NCBI GenBank assembly: GCA_009886115.1 | Contig: VFJJ01000019.1 | Coordinates: forward strand, 1-63,306 | Direction: 5' to 3' | Source: Actinomycetota bacterium | GTDB lineage: Bacteria; Actinomycetota; Acidimicrobiia; IMCC26256; VFJJ01 | DNA length: 63,306 nt | In this document: positions 3,997 through 58,084 of the stretch, one piece after another | How the letters are laid out: each line of letters opens with the position of its first letter | Position numbering within the stretch: position 1 is the first letter of the stretch | Program-made: the position numbers and the translations under genes | The notes under the pieces: model-generated | Databases searched by the model: none | Seen by the model: only the letters and a program-made list of their open reading frames with translations | What the model was told of the DNA's origin: nothing

Positions 3997-4015
3997 CGGG
4001 GCTGCCCCCGTCCGT

Positions 4016-4060
4016 TCTGTGTGCAGAAATCGTCGCCTGGCGACGATTTCTGCACACAGA
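4016..4060. repeat. Perfect 22-bp inverted repeat (REP-like palindrome, orphan copy)
   Basis: TCTGTGTGCAGAAATCGTCGCC-T-GGCGACGATTTCTGCACACAGA; same 35-bp core as the palindromes at 55738 and 56761. Confidence 0.9.
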
Positions 4061-4085
4061 TGGCGAGGCCGGGGGGGTGAGGCGG

Positions 4086-5339
4086 CTACCGCGCACTGCT
4101 GGCTTGGCGGCGGCGGTGCCGGAGCTCGGCGACGAGGTCGGCCGTCACCTTCTGGGGGAAGGGCAGGGCCCCGGCGCGCAGGTGCGCCTCGAGATCGGCC
4201 AGGCGTTCAACGAGATCGTCGAGCACCCTGACGGCGGCCCGTTCGGGCAGCCCGATCGTGGCGGCCAAGGCCAGGAGATGCCGTCGGGAGAGCCCGCGCG
4301 TTCGTCCCTGCCATGACAGCGCCAGGCTGGTGTCGCCGTAGGGCACCGTCGCCGGAAGGTCGTACGCCGGCGACACGCGCCATTCGCCGTCGCCCTGCAT
4401 CAGGATCGACAGGTTCTTGGCGTGCACGTCACCGTTGCCTGTGAGCCAGGCGAAGCACAGCTGCTGGTACAGGCTCCTCAGCGCGACGACTCGGGCCGGG
4501 CACCAGCGAGCGAGCGCGGTGACCACCTCCTCGGTGGTCACGTTGTACTTGTCAGCCGGCCATCGGCCCAGCACCTGGCAGGCGTCCTCGCACGCCAGCG
4601 CCTCGGTGCTGCCGTCGGCACGAGCAAGGCGATCGAAGCGGCGTATGAGCAGGCCAGGGCGCCTGTCGGCATCGTGCACGACGGTTGCCGAGGCGACGTC
4701 GAGGCGGCAGCGGCGGGCCTGGCTGAGGAAATAGGCCTCGTTCTCGACGACGTGGGGATACTCGGGCGGGTCGACCTTCAGGATGTACCGCTCGCCCGCC
4801 CGGCCGACCGGGACCGAGATCATCCGGGCCGAGGCCTTGTCCTGCACGCCGGGGAGCCCGACCCGGTCGATGACCCCGGCATCGGCCAGGACGTCGGCGA
4901 AGCGCAGCTCCGACCACTGCTCGGCCACCTGCACCAGGGCCTCGGCCGGGAGGGGCTGCTGACCGGCGGGCACCACCTGGACGTCACCGATCGCGTCACG
5001 CCCCACCGCCAGCAGCATCGTGAGCTCGTCGTCGGCGGAGGTCTTCAACGCCCGGTGCAGGCTCGAGAGCCTCCGTCCCTCGGGCAGCAGCCCGGCGAAG
5101 AACGGGGGGACCGCTCCGGCCGGGGTGCGGACGGGCCGATCGGTCAACGGCAGCGTCGTGGCCACCGCGGCAGTCGTGGCTGTCGCGTCTGTCGCCGCCT
5201 CGAGGTACTCGGCGTGATACGAGAACTCGACGCCGTCGACGTGGCGTCTGAGCACGCCGGCGAGGCGACCCGCCTTGTACACGTCGGCCGCGGCGACACT
5301 TCGCAGCGATTCCAACGACGTTGACTTCGCGGGTGTCAT
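4086..5339 (-). CDS. hipA: HipA-family kinase toxin (HipA N-terminal coupling domain plus HipA_C)
   Basis: PPFFAGLLPEG, DAIGDV, LPGVQDK, ENE, RRFDR, GNGDVHAKNLS and SPAYD motifs. Confidence 0.9.
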   Translation of the reverse strand: MTPAKSTSLESLRSVAAADVYKAGRLAGVLRRHVDGVEFSYHAEYLEAATDATATTAAVATTLPLTDRPVRTPAGAVPPFFAGLLPEGRRLSSLHRALKTSADDELTMLLAVGRDAIGDVQVVPAGQQPLPAEALVQVAEQWSELRFADVLADAGVIDRVGLPGVQDKASARMISVPVGRAGERYILKVDPPEYPHVVENEAYFLSQARRCRLDVASATVVHDADRRPGLLIRRFDRLARADGSTEALACEDACQVLGRWPADKYNVTTEEVVTALARWCPARVVALRSLYQQLCFAWLTGNGDVHAKNLSILMQGDGEWRVSPAYDLPATVPYGDTSLALSWQGRTRGLSRRHLLALAATIGLPERAAVRVLDDLVERLADLEAHLRAGALPFPQKVTADLVAELRHRRRQASSAR

Positions 5340-6545: not shown

Positions 6546-7087
6546 CCCCAGCCTCCCGTAGCTTTGAGTTCATTCCACGCTGCCAGCGGCCCATAAACGC
6601 CATACTTGGAATCGATACGTCGCATGGCCGTGTACTGCTGCCAGGTTTGCTTCCCGAGGATCCAACACCCACTCAAATAGCAATTGAGACCACCAGGTGC
6701 CGGTCCAATATATGTATTGGGCCATAGAGATATCATTTGGTACATCCCATAAAAGGGCCCGGCAGCATCGGCGTAGCTGTAGTTGTCTTCACGACAGGCC
6801 ATCAACGAGAGTGAGAGTGTTGGCGTGAAGGTGTCGCTCCACGTGTTCATGTACGGGTAGCTCGCGGCAAAGAAGTCGCCGGTAAACTGCAGCTCACCCA
6901 GCCACGTCGGAGGTTGGAGCGTCGACCAGTTGGCCTCACAGACCGCCACCGATTCCGCCGAAGCGGGCCGAGGAGTCAAGCCGAAGCTCGCGAGGCAGAC
7001 GGCGATGACAACGAGCATTCGGCGAGAGCGCCCACAGACTCTGCGCCTCGATCGTCGGGATCCGGATCGGATGTCGAAGCCTGACAT
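6542..7087 (-). CDS. Secreted protein with a lysozyme/lytic-transglycosylase-like C-terminus
   Basis: ATG at 7087 after a GGGGAGGT RBS; signal peptide ending ASA; CREDNY...FYGMYQM...QYTAMRRIDSKYG...PLAAW resembles actinobacterial SLT-like domains (ES-W...YG-Q...YI--RYG-P--AW). Confidence 0.5.
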   Translation of the reverse strand: MSGFDIRSGSRRSRRRVCGRSRRMLVVIAVCLASFGLTPRPASAESVAVCEANWSTLQPPTWLGELQFTGDFFAASYPYMNTWSDTFTPTLSLSLMACREDNYSYADAAGPFYGMYQMISLWPNTYIGPAPGGLNCYLSGCWILGKQTWQQYTAMRRIDSKYGVYGPLAAWNELKATGGWG

Positions 7088-7279
7088 GAGACCTCCCCTG
7101 GGCAGCACCGGGTGACTTGTCCGTTGTCTGCAACGATACGGGTGCGGCTCTTCTGGAGTGACGTCGTTCTGGGTGTGAGTTCGGCCGGGTAGGGCGTCTG
7201 TTGCTGGGGGATACACCACTTCCGTGGCTGTTTCTGCTTTCCTGTCTGTAGTGAGTGCCAGCTACAGATAGGAGCTACG

Positions 7280-7591
7280 ATGTCGTGCATCGTGTCCCGG
7301 TCCCGACCAATGCTGCTGCGTGGCACTCTGACCACGTTCCGCCGCCGGTGCGGCAAGGCGACGTGCCGGTGCGCGACCGGCGAGCCCCACGAGAGCCCGG
7401 CGTTGACGTTCACCGAGTCGGGGCGGACCAAGACCGTCACCCTGGCGGCCAGCGAGGTGGCCGAGGTGACCGCGGCGTTGGCGGCCTACGAAGCGGCCCG
7501 AGCGGAGCTCGAAGCTGCCGCCCAGGCGGGCCTGGTCAAGCTACGCAACCGCCGCCAGGGAGGCTCGGGGTCCGAAGGCGGGCGTCGATGA
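7280..7591 (+). CDS. Small IS accessory protein with a Cys/His cluster (DUF6788-like)
   Basis: GTL...RRRCGKATCRCATGEPH motif; lies inside the IS and overlaps the transposase start (ATGA 7588-7591). Confidence 0.7.
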   Translation: MSCIVSRSRPMLLRGTLTTFRRRCGKATCRCATGEPHESPALTFTESGRTKTVTLAASEVAEVTAALAAYEAARAELEAAAQAGLVKLRNRRQGGSGSEGGRR

Positions 7592-9078
7592 GCGCGCCGG
7601 GCGACGCGTTCGGGGCGTCTCGAGAGTCGTTCGAGGATCTGCTCGCCTGGTTGGAGGGCACGGAGGCGGCGTCGTTGAGCCACGCGGAGCTGGAAGACCA
7701 GCTCGATCAGCGCGGCCGGGAGTTGCTGCGCCAGATGATGCAGGGGCAGCTGGATCTGCGGGCCATGCGCGAACAGCGGGCCGACGAGGTCGTCGATGTC
7801 GACGGCGTCGCGCACGGGGCGGTCGAGGCGGGTCATCATCGTCCACTGATGAGCATCTTCGGCCACGTCGAGGTCGAACGTCTCGCCTATCGCCACCGGG
7901 GCCACGCCAACCTCTATCCCGCCGACGGGCAGCTCAACCTGCCCGAAGAGCTCCACTCGCACGGGCTGCGCCGCCTCGCCGCGATCGAAGCGACCCGAGG
8001 CTCCTACGGCGACACGGTCGAAGCGATCATGCGGGCCACCGGCGTCGGGGTCGGGAAACGTCAAGTCGAGGAGCTCACCGCCCGAGCCGCGGTCGATGTC
8101 GACGAGTTCTACCAGGCGATCCTCCGCGAACCCTGCGACGACAAGGTCGTGCTGGTCATCTCCGTCGACGGCAAAGGCATCGTGATGCGACCCGACTCGC
8201 TCCGGCCCGCCACCCAGCGAGCATCCGCCCAGGCGACGACCAAGCTCGAAACTCGTCTCTCCAAAGGAGAGAAACGCAACCGGAAACGTATCGCCGAGGT
8301 CGGCGCGGTCTACGACATCGTCCCCGTCTCGCGCGGTCCCGCTGACATCTTGGCCTCCAACCACCACGACAACCCGCCACCATCACCCCGCGCCACCGGC
8401 AAATGGGTCACCGCCAGCGTCATCGACGACGCCATCACCGTGATCGGCCGGGTCTTCGACGAGGCCCAACGACGCGACCCCAACCATCAACGACGATGGA
8501 TAGCCCTCGTCGACGGGAACCGCCACCAGATCGACTGCATCGAAACCCAAGCCCAGCAACGGGAACTGAACATCACCATCCTGATCGATCTGATCCACGT
8601 CCTCGAGTACATCTGGGCAGCCGCCTGGTGTTTCTTCGCTGAAGGCGACACCACCGCCGAAGCATGGGTACACGACCGGGCCCTCTCCGTGCTCGAAGGC
8701 AACGCCCGTGACGTCGCCACCGGCATCAGACGACGAGCCACCACCACCCGGCTGAACAAGACCAAACGCACCAACGCCGACAGAGCCGCCACCTACCTGA
8801 CCAACAAGGCCGCCTACCTCGACTACCCGACCGCGCTCGCTGCCGGCTGGCCCATCGCTACCGGCGTGATCGAAGGAACCTGCCGATACCTTGTCAAGGA
8901 CAGAATGGACATCACCGGCGCCCGTTGGAGCGTCGAAGGCGCCGAAGCCATCCTCAAACTACGAGCCCTACGCGCCAACGGCGACCTCGACACCTACTGG
9001 CGATACCACCTCGACCACGAACGACAACGCATCCACGAAACCCGCTACGCCGACAGCGTTATCCCACTCGTCGCATAG
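7588..9078 (+). CDS. ISKra4-family DDE transposase
   Basis: ISVDGKG, ALVDG, IDLIHVLEY (DxxH) and PIATGVIEGTCRYLVKDRMDITGARWS; stop codon overlaps the IRR. Confidence 0.9.
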   Translation: MSAPGDAFGASRESFEDLLAWLEGTEAASLSHAELEDQLDQRGRELLRQMMQGQLDLRAMREQRADEVVDVDGVAHGAVEAGHHRPLMSIFGHVEVERLAYRHRGHANLYPADGQLNLPEELHSHGLRRLAAIEATRGSYGDTVEAIMRATGVGVGKRQVEELTARAAVDVDEFYQAILREPCDDKVVLVISVDGKGIVMRPDSLRPATQRASAQATTKLETRLSKGEKRNRKRIAEVGAVYDIVPVSRGPADILASNHHDNPPPSPRATGKWVTASVIDDAITVIGRVFDEAQRRDPNHQRRWIALVDGNRHQIDCIETQAQQRELNITILIDLIHVLEYIWAAAWCFFAEGDTTAEAWVHDRALSVLEGNARDVATGIRRRATTTRLNKTKRTNADRAATYLTNKAAYLDYPTALAAGWPIATGVIEGTCRYLVKDRMDITGARWSVEGAEAILKLRALRANGDLDTYWRYHLDHERQRIHETRYADSVIPLVA

Positions 9079-17914: not shown

Positions 17915-18069
17915 CCGCTTCTCGGCGTCGGTATCGGCTTCGGCGGGCGGCCGGTGTCGACGGGCAGTGGTCGTGCGTTCGATCGCATCTGATCGATTCC
18001 ACGACCGCTCCCCCCGCTGGCCTACCCGATGGCCGCCAGTCCGCCGCCGTTTCTCGGTTCACCCCGGCG

Positions 18070-19167: not shown

Positions 19168-19286
19168 ACTCCCTCGTGGTCGTGGTCGTGGTCGTGGTCG
19201 TGGCGTGGCGGGGCGGCAACCCTCGTTCTTTGTGTCCTCGGTCATCGCCGGCGCGGTCGTGGACGCAAAGAAGCGGGATCGTGCGC

Positions 19287-31637: not shown

Positions 31638-31762
31638 CCCCCGATCATGCCAGCTCCCGAATGCACGCCCGGTCCGCAGAGCGCCAACCCCTGCGAGCAC
31701 GGTCAGATGGACGTGGCACAGGACGTCGTTCTGAGCACTGCTCGATGGAGTTGGGGAGTGCG

Positions 31763-54574: not shown

Positions 54575-55702
54575 ATGCTCAGTCGATTCGACGACTATCC
54601 GATCCATCAGGTCCCGATCCCCATCGCCCACACGGGATCGGCCGATCGCAACCACTACGACCGCTACTTCTTCAACGGCTACCTGCCCGAGGGCGAGATC
54701 TTCTTCGGTGGGGCGATGGGCCTGTACCCCAACCGCCACGTGATCGACGGGGCCTTCAGCATCATCCGTGACGGTCGCCAGAAGAACGTCTACGCATCCG
54801 GCAGAGCGCCGGTCGAGCGCAGCCACACCCAGGTGGGGCCGATCCGGGTCGAGGTCGTCGAGCCCATGGAGCGCATCCGGCTCATCGTCGAAGGCGCCGA
54901 GCACGGCGTCGAGGCCGACGTGACCTTCGAGGCCCGGGCCGTGGCCGTCGAAGAAGAGCGCCAGGTCCGCAACTTCGCCAACGTGCAGGTGATGGACGTC
55001 ACCCGCTTCACCCAGAACGGCTCATGGTCGGGCTGGGTGGCGATCGACGGTGTGCAGCACACGATCGACCCTCGAGTGGCCCGCGGCACACGCGACCGGT
55101 CGTGGGGCATCAGGCCCGTCGGCGAGCCGCCTGGGGGCGCTCCGGCGTCGATGGGGAACCAGATCTTCTGGCTCTGGGCCCCGCTCAACTTCGACGATCG
55201 CTGCACCTACATCGCGTTGTTCGACGACGCCGAGGGCACGAAGTACTACCAGCACTCGCTGATCGCGCCCGTCCGCCAATCGGCCACCGACCCCACGATC
55301 GACCCCGGTGGCATCGCCAAGCTGATGCGCAACACCGACTTCACGATCGACTGGGAACCGGGCACCCGGCGGGCACGAGCGGCCACGATGACGCTGCAAC
55401 CGTACGGCTCCGAGGCGCCGCATCACCTCACCTTCGAGGTGCTCTACACGTTCCAGATGTGCGGCATCGGCTACTCGCACCCCCACTGGTCGCACGGCAC
55501 GTGGCACGGCGACCTCGAGGTCGGCGGCTCCGAATGGAAGCTGGCCGACGTCGACCCGATGGAGCGCCACAACCTGCACATCCAGAACATGTGCCGGGTC
55601 ACGATCGACGGCCAGCCCGGCTGGGGCATCCTCGAGCAGATCGCCGTCGGTCCCCACGGCCCCACCGGTCTCACCGGCATCCTCGACCCCGCCACCGGCT
55701 GA
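54575..55702 (+). CDS. Conserved hypothetical protein
   Basis: MLS.FDDYPIHQ, DRN.YDRYFFN, GLYPN, RDRSWG.RP and GILEQ...GPH; strong GC3 bias. Confidence 0.75.
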   Translation: MLSRFDDYPIHQVPIPIAHTGSADRNHYDRYFFNGYLPEGEIFFGGAMGLYPNRHVIDGAFSIIRDGRQKNVYASGRAPVERSHTQVGPIRVEVVEPMERIRLIVEGAEHGVEADVTFEARAVAVEEERQVRNFANVQVMDVTRFTQNGSWSGWVAIDGVQHTIDPRVARGTRDRSWGIRPVGEPPGGAPASMGNQIFWLWAPLNFDDRCTYIALFDDAEGTKYYQHSLIAPVRQSATDPTIDPGGIAKLMRNTDFTIDWEPGTRRARAATMTLQPYGSEAPHHLTFEVLYTFQMCGIGYSHPHWSHGTWHGDLEVGGSEWKLADVDPMERHNLHIQNMCRVTIDGQPGWGILEQIAVGPHGPTGLTGILDPATG

Positions 55703-55728
55703 GCCCCACCCCACCCCACCCCACCCCA

Positions 55729-55781
55729 CCCAAATTTGTGCAGTTTGCGTCGCCGGGCGACGCTGCTTGCACAAATTTGGG
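55729..55781. repeat. REP-like palindrome, left flank of the AbiEi/DUF559 gene
   Basis: CCCAAATTTGTGCA-GTTT-GCGTCGCC-G-GGCGACGC-TGCT-TGCACAAATTTGGG, preceded by a (CCCCA)n tract. Confidence 0.88.
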
Positions 55782-55804
55782 CGGGATTCGGACACTGGCG
55801 AGAC

Positions 55805-55826
55805 TGTCACACCCCTGTGGTGACAT
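55805..55826 (+). promoter_or_regulatory. Candidate PafBC/RecA-NDp-type DNA-damage promoter, leaderless
   Basis: TGTCAC-N10-TGACAT versus the mycobacterial consensus TGTCGG-N10-TANNNT; the ATG lies 7 nt after the -10-like hexamer. Confidence 0.5.
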
Positions 55827-55832
55827 AGGGGC

Positions 55833-56741
55833 ATGCGAGATCCGGCTGTCCACGTCATCGCCGACCGCCAACTGGGCCTGGTCACCCGCCACCAGGCCCG
55901 CAACGCGGGACTGCATCCGAGAACGATCGACCGTCGGTGCCAGGCCGGCATGTGGGAACGGGTGCTTCCCGGGGTGTACCGCATCGTCGGGGCAGCCACG
56001 TCGTGGGACCAGCGAGTCAAGGCCGCCGAGCTGGCATCCAGGGGCGTCACGTCGCACCGGGCCGCGGCCCAGATCTGGAATCTGCAGGGCATCAACACAG
56101 GCGGGCCCGAGGTGACCGTCGGCTACCGGTCGAGCGCACGGCTCGAGCGGGTCACGGTCCATCGCAGCGCCGACCTGGTCGAAGCGCACGTCACCGAGCG
56201 ACGCGGCCATCGCGTCACCGTGCCCTGGCGGACACTGGTCGATCTCGGCGCCGTCGTTCGCCCCCACCTCGTCGAGGTCGCGCTCCACGGCGCCTTGCGC
56301 CACAAGCTCGTCACGCTCGATCAGCTGATCGTCGAACGAGCGGGCATCGCCCGGCGGGGCCGCGACGGCGTGGGCGTGATGCGACTCGTGCTCGAACTCC
56401 AGGAAGGCACGCCGCCCCAGCTCGTGTTCGAGTCACAGTTCCTCCAGCTCTGCCGACACCTCGAACTGCCGACACCATCGCGTCAGGTCGCTGTACGCGA
56501 CCCCAGCGGAGTCACGATCCATCTCGACTTCGCCTGGCCGTCGGTCAAGGTCGCAGTCGAGGCGGTCGGATGGGAATGGCACAGCGGCCGCCTGGCCTTC
56601 GAGGACGACGCCCGCCGTGATGCCATCTGCGCCAGCCAGGGCTGGACGGTCGTCCCGGTCACCTGGCGCCAGTTGAACGACGAAACCGACTGGCTCGCCC
56701 GACGGCTGAGGATGGCTATCGAATATCGGCGCTCCGCATGA
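55833..56741 (+). CDS. AbiEi-like N-terminal HTH plus DUF559/Vsr-like endonuclease-fold protein
   Basis: A.RQ.G.VTR.Q...GL, WERV.PGVY, SHRAAA..W, VT.P.RT.VDL, ES..., DFAWP..KVAVE..G..WH...D..RD...GW.V..VTW. Confidence 0.85.
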   Translation: MRDPAVHVIADRQLGLVTRHQARNAGLHPRTIDRRCQAGMWERVLPGVYRIVGAATSWDQRVKAAELASRGVTSHRAAAQIWNLQGINTGGPEVTVGYRSSARLERVTVHRSADLVEAHVTERRGHRVTVPWRTLVDLGAVVRPHLVEVALHGALRHKLVTLDQLIVERAGIARRGRDGVGVMRLVLELQEGTPPQLVFESQFLQLCRHLELPTPSRQVAVRDPSGVTIHLDFAWPSVKVAVEAVGWEWHSGRLAFEDDARRDAICASQGWTVVPVTWRQLNDETDWLARRLRMAIEYRRSA

Positions 56742-56760
56742 CCGATTCCCTGCGATCTCC

Positions 56761-56810
56761 GTGCAGATTGCGTCGCCCCGCGACGCAATCTGCACAAATT
56801 TCGGGGGGGG
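56761..56810. repeat. REP-like palindrome, right flank of the AbiEi/DUF559 gene
   Basis: GTGCAGATTGCGTCGC-CCC-GCGACGCAATCTGCAC (perfect 16-bp stem) followed by AAATTTCGGGGGGGG. Confidence 0.88.
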
Positions 56811-56850
56811 TCAGCCCGTCAGCCCGTCAGCCCGTCAGCCCGTCAGCCCG
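56811..56850. repeat. 8-bp tandem repeat TCAGCCCG x5 spanning a stop codon
   Basis: Five exact units; the amidohydrolase stop is the TCA at 56835-56837. Confidence 0.9.
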
Positions 56851-58064
56851 AGCATGGCCCGGGCGTTGCCGCGCACGATCTTCTCGAGCTCGACGGGCGA
56901 CAGGCGCTCGGCGAAGGCGGCCACCATGGCGCCCGAGTGCGGCCAGGTGGAATCCTGGTGGGGGTAGTCGGTCTCGAAGGTGATCTGGTCGATGCCGATG
57001 GCGTCACGGGCCGAGAGGCCGAAGTCGTCGTCGAAGAAACACCCGAAGACGCGCCCCTTGGCATAGGTGCTCGGCGGCTCGACGATCGCCGGATCGAGGT
57101 CGATCCAGCCCCGGCTCTTCTTGAAGATGTTGTCGCAGCGCTCGAGCAGGAAGGGCATCCAACCGATCTGGCCTTCGGAGTACGCCAGCTTCAGGTTCGG
57201 GTAGCGGGCCAGTGCACCCGACATGAGCCAGTCGGCCATCGACACCTGCGCGTTCATGAACGTGAGCGCCACGCCGACGCCCGGCGGGGCATCGGCCGAC
57301 GATGTGGGCATGCGTGAGCCCGACCCGATGTGCATGCACACCACGGTTCCCGTCTCGTCGCACGCTTCGAGGAACGGGTTCCAGTGGCCATCACGGGCAT
57401 GGATCGACGGCAGCCCGAGGTACGACGGGAGCTCGGTGAACGCCACGGCCCGAGCACCCCGAGCGGCGTTCCTGCGCACCTCGGCGGCCGCGGCGACCGG
57501 GTCCCACAACGGCACAAGGCACAGCGGCAGCAGACGGCCGCCCGACTCGCCGCACCACTCCTCGATCATCCAGTCGTTGTTGGCCTCGACACAGGCATGG
57601 GCCAGCTCCCGGTCCTTGGCCTCGAGGAACGTCTGCCCGCAAAACCTTGGGAACGTTGGAAAGCACAGCGACGCCTCGGTGTGGTTGGCGTCCATGTCGG
57701 CCAGTCGGGCCTTCACATCGAAGCAACCCGGGCGCATCTCGTCGAAGGCGATGGGGTCGGTGGTGAGCGACTCGGGCGGGAACCCTGCGCAGGCCATCAC
57801 CTGCGGGATGGGCCGAACGAGGTCTTCGTAGACCCACACGTCGGTCGTGAAGCCCTCGGTAGCTGGGGCGAAGCGCACGGTCCCCGCGTCGTAGGTCTTG
57901 GCGACGGTCATCCGCTCGACCCGGGGGCCCTGCTCCCGAAAGCGCTCGGGCAGCCAGCGCTGCCACACGTGCGAGGGCTCGACCACGTGGTCGTCGACCG
58001 ACACGATGCGCGGCAGGCCGTCGAGCCAGCCGGCGACTCCCTGGTTCAAGTCGGTGAGCGTCAC
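56835..58064 (-). CDS. Amidohydrolase family protein (paralog of 9254..10468)
   Basis: PRIVSVDDHVVEP, PRFCGQTF, MHIGS and FETDYPHQDSTWP; GTG start after GGGAG. Confidence 0.9.
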   Translation of the reverse strand: MTLTDLNQGVAGWLDGLPRIVSVDDHVVEPSHVWQRWLPERFREQGPRVERMTVAKTYDAGTVRFAPATEGFTTDVWVYEDLVRPIPQVMACAGFPPESLTTDPIAFDEMRPGCFDVKARLADMDANHTEASLCFPTFPRFCGQTFLEAKDRELAHACVEANNDWMIEEWCGESGGRLLPLCLVPLWDPVAAAAEVRRNAARGARAVAFTELPSYLGLPSIHARDGHWNPFLEACDETGTVVCMHIGSGSRMPTSSADAPPGVGVALTFMNAQVSMADWLMSGALARYPNLKLAYSEGQIGWMPFLLERCDNIFKKSRGWIDLDPAIVEPPSTYAKGRVFGCFFDDDFGLSARDAIGIDQITFETDYPHQDSTWPHSGAMVAAFAERLSPVELEKIVRGNARAMLGLTG

Positions 58065-58084
58065 GTGAGTTTCTCCCTGGAGGC

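Follow-up and report, generated by a model that had tools for sequence, protein, structure and literature searches.

The window examined here is a stretch of 63,306 nucleotides (contig VFJJ01000019.1 of assembly GCA_009886115.1), from an actinobacterium of the order IMCC26256. It carries a free-standing, intergenic gene whose product has an AbiEi N-terminus and which is framed by two palindromes of 49 bp (Table 1). Gene and flanking palindromes together make up a cassette that is present at this site and absent from a sister species of the same genus (G001, about 85% identical to the genome studied here, G000).

Table 1. Coordinates of the cassette, its surroundings and the solitary palindrome within the window.
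Feature	Position	Strand	Remarks
Solitary family-A palindrome	4014..4062		21/23 paired; flanking genes convergent; close to family consensus
Left neighbour gene, no family above cut-off	54575..55702	+	outside cassette; syntenic in G001
C-rich left flank, (CCCCA)x5	55704..55730		sequence
Left family-A palindrome, 23+3+23 bp	55731..55779		19/23 paired; divergence rank 38/43, among most divergent
PafBC-type promoter TGTCAC-N10-TGACAT	55805..55826	+	28 nt ahead of ATG; imperfect -10 box
AbiEi-Vsr fusion gene, 302 aa	55833..56741	+	AbiEi fold 1-191, Vsr-like EDxHD nuclease domain 195-301
Right family-A palindrome	56754..56802		19/23 paired; rank 43/43 in family
G8 + five tandem TCAGCCCG units	56803..56850		reaches into amidohydrolase gene 3' end
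Right neighbour, amidohydrolase, convergent	56835..58070	-	outside cassette; syntenic in G001

A pattern search for the 35-bp core GTGCAG-N4-CGTCGCC-N-(G/C)GCGACG-N4-(C/T)TGCAC placed it at window positions 55738, 56761 and 4021, as a first-pass annotation had reported; the core is the middle of the larger palindrome, in which 3 bases separate two 23-bp arms. The annotation was also right that the N4 segments pair in two of these copies and not in the left one (TTTG/CTGC), and that a C-rich tract lies on the left and a G8 run on the right, one C standing between AAATTT and the G8. Of the terminal inverted pair it described, the ends themselves exist, but every copy of the family has such ends and they are not specific to the cassette. 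The G8/TCAGCCCG tract was 17 nt shorter in one strain. No target-site duplication was visible at the cassette junctions, as had been stated, and Rfam gave no match above threshold at the locus. Reads of eight runs contained no joint that skips or inverts the cassette, contigs being unable to show absence, and one RNA-run contig spans 56464-56696, by itself no sign of transcription.

Elsewhere in the window, single copies of other palindrome families lie at 17964-18009 (C74), 19224-19272 (C196), 31694-31744 (E) and 163-213 (F). An ORF for a HipA-like kinase (by resemblance; 4086-5339, minus strand) converges on the palindrome at 4021 and is mostly deleted in G001; comparison of the 4021 site with G001 was set aside as confounded by deletion. 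The ORF at 6976-9078 we take to be transposase-like, by resemblance of the ISKra4/ISAzo13 type.

Allowing up to two mismatches, the 35-bp pattern matched 41 times in the genome (5.45 Mb, 69% G+C, 224 contigs, 95.6% complete) and its reversed control not once, and a profile search raised the count to 46 copies. The abundance of this palindrome, family A, is far above chance, which bears out the repeat family postulated at first pass. The hexamer TCGGAC occurs at a similar distance past the palindrome in 4 of 81 family-A flanks (0.6 expected), namely on the inner side of the left cassette copy (window 55781-55800) and at C52:57130, C193:144037 and C207:8352 of G000. By this hexamer, some single family-A copies may derive from a cassette end.

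The product of 55833-56741 matched AbiEi_4 (E 9.5e-11) and, in PADLOC, AbiEi (E 5.5e-27); matches to MTES_1575/DUF559 were weak and below cut-offs, and NCBIfam gave none for the 302-aa protein. In a structure model (pLDDT 90), residues 1-191 match the whole AbiEi fold (6Y8Q; Z 12.2, rmsd 3.8, 180 aligned) and residues 195-301 the homing endonuclease I-Bth0305I (3R3P; Z 12.5, rmsd 2.5, 96 aligned), the latter segment also matching 3HRL and Vsr; no transposase fold was found in the protein. The EDxHD residues are kept (E200, D232, H250, D259), as is E243, with V245 at the variable 'x' site. I-Bth0305I is described as a homodimer with a footprint of ~60 bp that cuts a central pseudopalindrome by means of D196, N208, H213 and D222 (PMC3239194), and these four residues align with D232, V245, H250 and D259. 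V245 stands in the place of a polar active-site residue, N208 in I-Bth0305I and H64 in Vsr; the position is D in 57 of 75 aligned rows and V in one, and L197 is likewise unique among the 75. Since V245 is nonpolar, this subfamily may cut poorly, with lowered catalytic activity. EAVG, which the annotation had read in place of the usual E-x-D-G, is correct, and it does not reflect recent decay, because a 78% identical homolog retains it and the changes in a strain contig are mostly synonymous (13 against 3 non-synonymous, neutrality predicting 26% synonymous), with V245 unchanged. The gene is under purifying selection.

The AbiEi matches in PADLOC and the many potential targets per genome would suit an abortive-infection or addiction module, in which damage or phage DNA induces the nuclease and the chromosome is cut at many palindromes. 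No AbiEii toxin gene follows 55833-56741, however, the next gene being the convergent amidohydrolase; the neighbours are housekeeping enzymes and form no defence island, and the flanking pair would go unexplained, all of which makes such a module exceedingly improbable.

Seven full-length AbiEi-Vsr paralogs were recovered from G000 by a paralog search, besides two AbiEi matches that lack the nuclease domain. A matched palindrome pair surrounds all seven, each pair drawn from a different dispersed family, so that the suspected linkage to AbiEi/DUF559 genes holds for every full-length gene. An unbiased scan for long palindromes, combined with profile searches, yielded 281 copies in nine families with units of about 44-52 bp: seven families with a gene (A, 46 copies; C196, 66; C131, 40; C61, 29; C76, 22; C74, 13; C70, 3) and two without one in the G000 assembly (B, 40; D, 22). 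Among 18 repeat pairs lying 600-1,500 bp apart, ten were of the same family (shuffled mean 2.6; largest value 8 in 5,000 shuffles), and seven of these ten enclose nuclease genes. The paralogs are 29-69% identical, no two closer than 69%, and at this divergence there is no sign of recent gene copying within the genome; a quick tree shows them scattered, and nothing beyond that. No Y1_Tnp (PF01797) gene matched in the 95.6% complete assembly (control positive in 6/14). Given the dispersed family, a family for each paralog, no Y1_Tnp match and absence from the sister species, the RAYT-independent partnership proposed at first pass is supported. It recalls REPtrons, described as RAYT/TnpA-REP genes with cognate REP/REPIN repeats (PMC8266576, PMC3733652).

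The 20-nt flanks, all families pooled, are C-rich on the left (2,550 C vs 1,296 G) and G-rich on the right as a mirror image, a pattern seen in most families; in G001, several empty sites resemble a C tract adjoining a G tract. As an extension of the stem these tracts were rejected, pairing with the own partner (8.75) matching that with shuffled partners (8.77), and short tandem repeats were discarded as a palindrome signature, being barely enriched (54/536 vs 105/1,447). At locus L197 (G000:C52:57130-58091) a PhyH-like gene, by resemblance, lies between two family-A copies with a common rare variant and is a possible passenger cassette; it was not found at the matching site in G001, whose contigs break there, presumably at a transposase gene. 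Further C131-type pairs surround other DNA at G000:C52:25464-26544 (an enoyl-CoA hydratase-like gene inside) and C120:13584-14955. Hybrids with the outer part of one family and the inner part of the other, A or B, occur at orthologous sites of the two species (G000 C68:29736, C18:44268, C38:15077, C140:7111; G001 L154, L130, L115), and A and B may form one superfamily served by the 55833-56741 gene.

For 244 of 314 gene-end distances the stop codon lies within 60 nt of a repeat, and convergent sites are enriched among the repeats (95/253 vs 474/2,178). The palindromes could be by-products, acting as bidirectional terminators or mRNA stabilisers, with the gene repressing itself through one copy as an AbiEi-style operator and having no role in spreading; AbiEi does autoregulate through such repeats (PMC7319586). 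An additional terminator or mRNA role may exist. As the whole explanation we consider this very improbable, for it accounts neither for the matched downstream copy and the different family of each of the seven paralogs, nor for copy number following the gene and single palindromes at empty sites (see below); moreover, 25 nt separate the end of the upstream copy from the promoter, and in C74 this copy lies more than 150 nt upstream.

The promoter of the gene has counterparts throughout the genome. TGTC-N17-T stands 28-29 nt before the ATG in all seven paralogs, and the 55833-56741 transcript is, by its sequence, likely leaderless. The PafBC motif is given as tGTCgg-N10-tA-N3-T in one paper (PMC8635444), which also has PafBC respond to single-stranded DNA, and a TGTCAC variant in another (PMC8151990). 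A matching motif precedes recA, radA, uvrB, sbcD and xseA, and also genes for an Hrq1-like helicase, a PD-(D/E)xK nuclease, a dGTPase and HNH, DUF222 and Uma2 proteins. In a PafBC matrix trained on 12 other promoters, none from a paralog, the 55833-56741 gene came 10th among 3,782 crude gene calls; the 1% threshold was passed by 43 of 75 homologs. Contig C27 encodes a tandem WYL pair, which we take to be PafB-like, and we likewise assume that Rv3517 and Rv3555c of Mycobacterium tuberculosis are members of the AbiEi-Vsr family. Supplement rows list Rv3517 (annotated Abi_Ei_antitoxin) as mitomycin-induced and both genes as PafBC-dependent. From the promoter, the gene is likely induced by DNA damage.

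The operator of AbiEi consists of two 23-bp inverted repeats 3 bp apart, on which the C-terminal domains are proposed to meet (PMC7319586). The 23+3+23 layout of family A is exactly that of this operator, and the palindrome does not overlap the promoter. Across families the arm is best conserved from about -23 to -13 from the centre, and the units are symmetric, 45-52 bp long and without a conserved terminal tetranucleotide in column profiles. The first-pass annotation had taken covariation to imply selection on structure, a conclusion not supported in that form: family A does covary, but most of the other families do so little or not at all. Pairing in A exceeds independent assortment (0.85 vs 0.41 at -8), and an excess appears at two positions of C131 and, more modestly, in the outer arm of B and C196, where it affects two or three positions. 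At variable inner positions, excess pairing was little or none in B, C196, C61, D and C76. C76 and C61 have an asymmetric centre, and some centres are directional. Mirrored multi-base variants can arise by copying of one arm onto the other through template switching. Because length is fixed and half-sites are conserved, a double-strand protein site fits better than selection for a hairpin, and on the operator model two monomers probably bind the palindrome as a duplex.

A RAYT-like protein would instead recognise the folded single-strand hairpin, excise it and paste it elsewhere. The three window copies all fold as long hairpins (-22 to -27 kcal/mol), 34 of 40 family-A copies are paired at inner positions and represent eight distinct variants with complete inner pairing, PafBC is responsive to single-stranded DNA according to the source noted above, and the repeats lie close to gene ends and between convergently oriented genes, as REPs do. 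Yet 28 of the 34 paired copies represent just two variants, the five families named above show no excess of inner pairing, and AbiEi binds double-strand repeats of equal size. Furthermore, PD-(D/E)xK-type hydrolases to our knowledge form no covalent link and cannot rejoin strands, and we judge mobilisation of this kind improbable.

In G001 the neighbours of the cassette are syntenic and enclose ~125 bp of unrelated DNA with no palindrome, an empty site of the kind envisaged at first pass. Family A falls from 41 copies in G000 to three in G001 and is absent from 29 other genomes searched, and family E numbers 20 copies in 0.96 Mb of G001, where its gene is present, vs eight weaker ones in all of G000, where it is absent. 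Copy number thus follows the gene in both directions for families A and E; family D, with 22 copies in G000 and no gene there, is a counter-example. Of ten nuclease loci in the two genomes, three are common (77% and 65% amino-acid and 89% nucleotide identity) and seven occur in one genome only. At three of the seven (C76, L070, L060) the other genome's empty site holds one cognate-family palindrome, giving filled and single-palindrome states of one site; at the remaining four, the 55833-56741 locus included, the empty allele has none, which counts against repeat turnover driven by cutting. Among 34 repeats with a matchable interval, drawn from 0.96 Mb and eight loci and biased to shared sites in that some were found via the family-A pattern, nine were kept, one was an A/B hybrid and 24 intervals had none of the nine families, some of them holding family E or F instead. 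In a further genus, another cassette has at one locus a clean empty site, a 10-bp gap between convergent stop codons; no target-site duplication was found at the L039 junction. At one site, also in a further genus, the orthologs are 50% identical and their neighbours 75-87%, each ortholog having its own matched palindromes. At L177 (G001:C24:3200-3400), a dehydrogenase-like gene that is intact in G000 (C61) is reduced to a 24-nt remnant directly beside the L069 cassette. A 71% identical paralog, whose palindrome is a different one, is located ~2 kb away.

These comparisons bear on whether the protein serves its host, binding palindromes during damage (resolving extruded hairpins, marking repair sites) with perhaps weak or no nuclease activity, ordinary recombination spreading the repeats and recognition by the protein preserving them. 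A PafBC promoter common to core repair genes would be expected of such a protein, as would the PafBC dependence of Rv3517, if our placing of it in the family is right, purifying selection despite V245, and one gene per family with some vertical inheritance, as in domesticated RAYTs. We nevertheless find a host-serving role doubtful: presence differs at seven of ten loci between two species of one genus, common orthologs diverge faster than their neighbours (50% vs 75-87%), and selfish HNH and DUF222 genes share the promoter, which is therefore no proof of benefit.

Homologs occur in 28 of the 31 genomes of the order (G000 included). We surveyed the best 69 of 124 matches outside G000 by E-value, dropping fragment L028, together with the seven paralogs; the relatives' genomes are not independent samples. 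In a first anchoring, upstream and downstream flanks had a common element at 48 of 74 scored loci; cross-pairings gave 2 in 1,095 and control genes 8 in 1,391, and of these eight at least four are themselves paralogs. Anchored on the nuclease domain, 54 of 73 loci had a common flank element, two loci dropping out because their flanks were too short; self-complementarity was clear in 40 of the 54, and the pairs were direct in 19 cases, inverted in 14 and undecided in 21. A wider phylum sample gave homologs in 23 of 61 genomes, a tally that takes in two unpublished genomes whose loci are excluded from everything else, and paired flanks at 8 of 20 full-length loci vs 0 of 380 cross-pairs, pairing being weaker outside the order. 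Protein identity did not predict palindrome similarity below about 75% (0 of 1,431 pairs reached threshold), so that co-evolution is visible only as concerted replacement. A metagenome scan for close relatives of the 55833-56741 gene found none. The unrelated genome G031 (L090-L096) contains 33 look-alike palindrome copies; these were rejected as flanks of the homolog inspected there, which a different pair frames. At L020 and L193 a nuclease cassette directly precedes a uvrB-like start, with a PafBC-like promoter on both genes. In P0002, P0005, P0006, P0012, P0032 and P0035 many homologs are found on contigs only 1.0-1.2 kb long, as would be the case if assembly broke off at a repeat on either side.

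On balance, we lean slightly towards a damage-induced nuclease that binds its palindrome as double-stranded DNA, cuts its family and drives turnover of the scattered copies. By the geometry and the fold, two monomers would sit on the two 23-bp arms as AbiEi does on its operator, reading the conserved outer arm, and this would bring both C-terminal nuclease domains together at the palindrome centre. PafBC, judged by the promoter, would switch the gene on along with recA, radA and uvrB, while recombination is active. In the weakest step, a nick or break in the palindrome would be repaired with the opposite arm or a different copy as template, and the chances that cutting drives repeat turnover seem to us about even. 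Such repair would mirror changes between arms and swap centres between copies, could copy the gene into a single palindrome in a homing-like manner, and could later loop the gene out to leave one palindrome; recombination between the flanks would yield a single palindrome if they are direct and an inversion if inverted. Repair of this kind would explain the mirrored variants, the A/B hybrids and the way both flanks change in concert. If ~45 sites were cut freely the cell would be harmed, so that cutting must be restricted in some way. The proposal accounts neither for the arrival of a palindrome at a palindrome-free site nor for the C-rich left and G-rich right flanks, and family B, with its 40 copies and no gene in either the G000 or the G001 assembly, speaks against turnover. 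Tentatively, the cassette might further be a selfish replicator: an antitoxin-derived operator-binding protein joined to a homing-type nuclease, which would ride the PafBC damage response, seed its own 49-bp operator, home into single copies, leave singles when lost, carry passengers and re-program its target into orthogonal pairs.

The system works like a REPtron, yet it fails the defining features of REPtrons, homing endonucleases, AbiE systems and IS elements alike. As in REPtrons, a single enzyme gene goes with a repeat family and has that family's repeats on both sides, there are several systems per genome, and the dispersed repeats lie near gene ends and between convergent genes in numbers that follow the gene. 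In contrast to REPtrons, the enzyme is AbiEi plus a Vsr-like nuclease and not an HUH/Y1 tyrosine transposase; the repeats are single 45-52-bp palindromes without a GTAG (or CGTC) tag, whereas REPs are short and come in doublets or BIMEs; and there is typically exactly one copy on each side, a PafBC promoter on the gene and, as modelled, likely double-stranded recognition. With the EDxHD homing endonuclease I-Bth0305I (PDB 3R3P) the protein shares a nuclease fold and motif behind an N-terminal DNA-binding region and, by prediction, the homodimer and long footprint on a pseudopalindrome reported for that enzyme (PMC3239194), and the site has filled and empty alleles; but the cassette gene lies in no intron or intein, its DNA-binding part is AbiEi and not NUMOD, and its predicted target is an intergenic repeat, dispersed and also present next to the gene, where that of homing endonucleases is one site in a conserved gene. 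Residues 1-191 have the full fold of the type IV AbiE antitoxin AbiEi and of Rv2827c (PDB 6Y8Q, 1ZEL), and the 23+3+23 layout agrees with that of the AbiEi operator (PMC7319586); here, though, AbiEii is missing, a nuclease is fused, and copies of the site flank the gene on either side and recur at ~45 further positions. A gene between terminal repeats, presence and absence between relatives, and possible cargo (the PhyH gene of C52) are reminiscent of MITEs and IS elements, from which the cassette differs in having no DDE, Y1, Y2 or serine transposase, no target duplication, ends that are each a full palindrome, and no near-identical gene copies.

A literature search, outside which most subscription journals fell, found no description of an AbiEi-Vsr/palindrome system. 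The system is real, widespread in the IMCC26256 order surveyed and apparently undescribed in print, and the evidence points to an undescribed repeat-and-enzyme system in actinobacteria. If the proposal is true, it identifies the enzyme responsible for a large class of intergenic palindromes in actinobacteria (281 copies in nine families here) and assigns a function to a widespread family that so far has no label beyond 'AbiEi/DUF559' or 'very-short-patch-repair endonuclease'. Since one genome encodes seven such proteins, each with its own predicted target, the claim can be tested directly in a matrix of binding and cutting, and the seven would constitute a natural set of long-site nucleases. 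The cassettes would then represent another answer to the REP/RAYT arrangement, chemically unrelated to the first and linked to the DNA-damage response.
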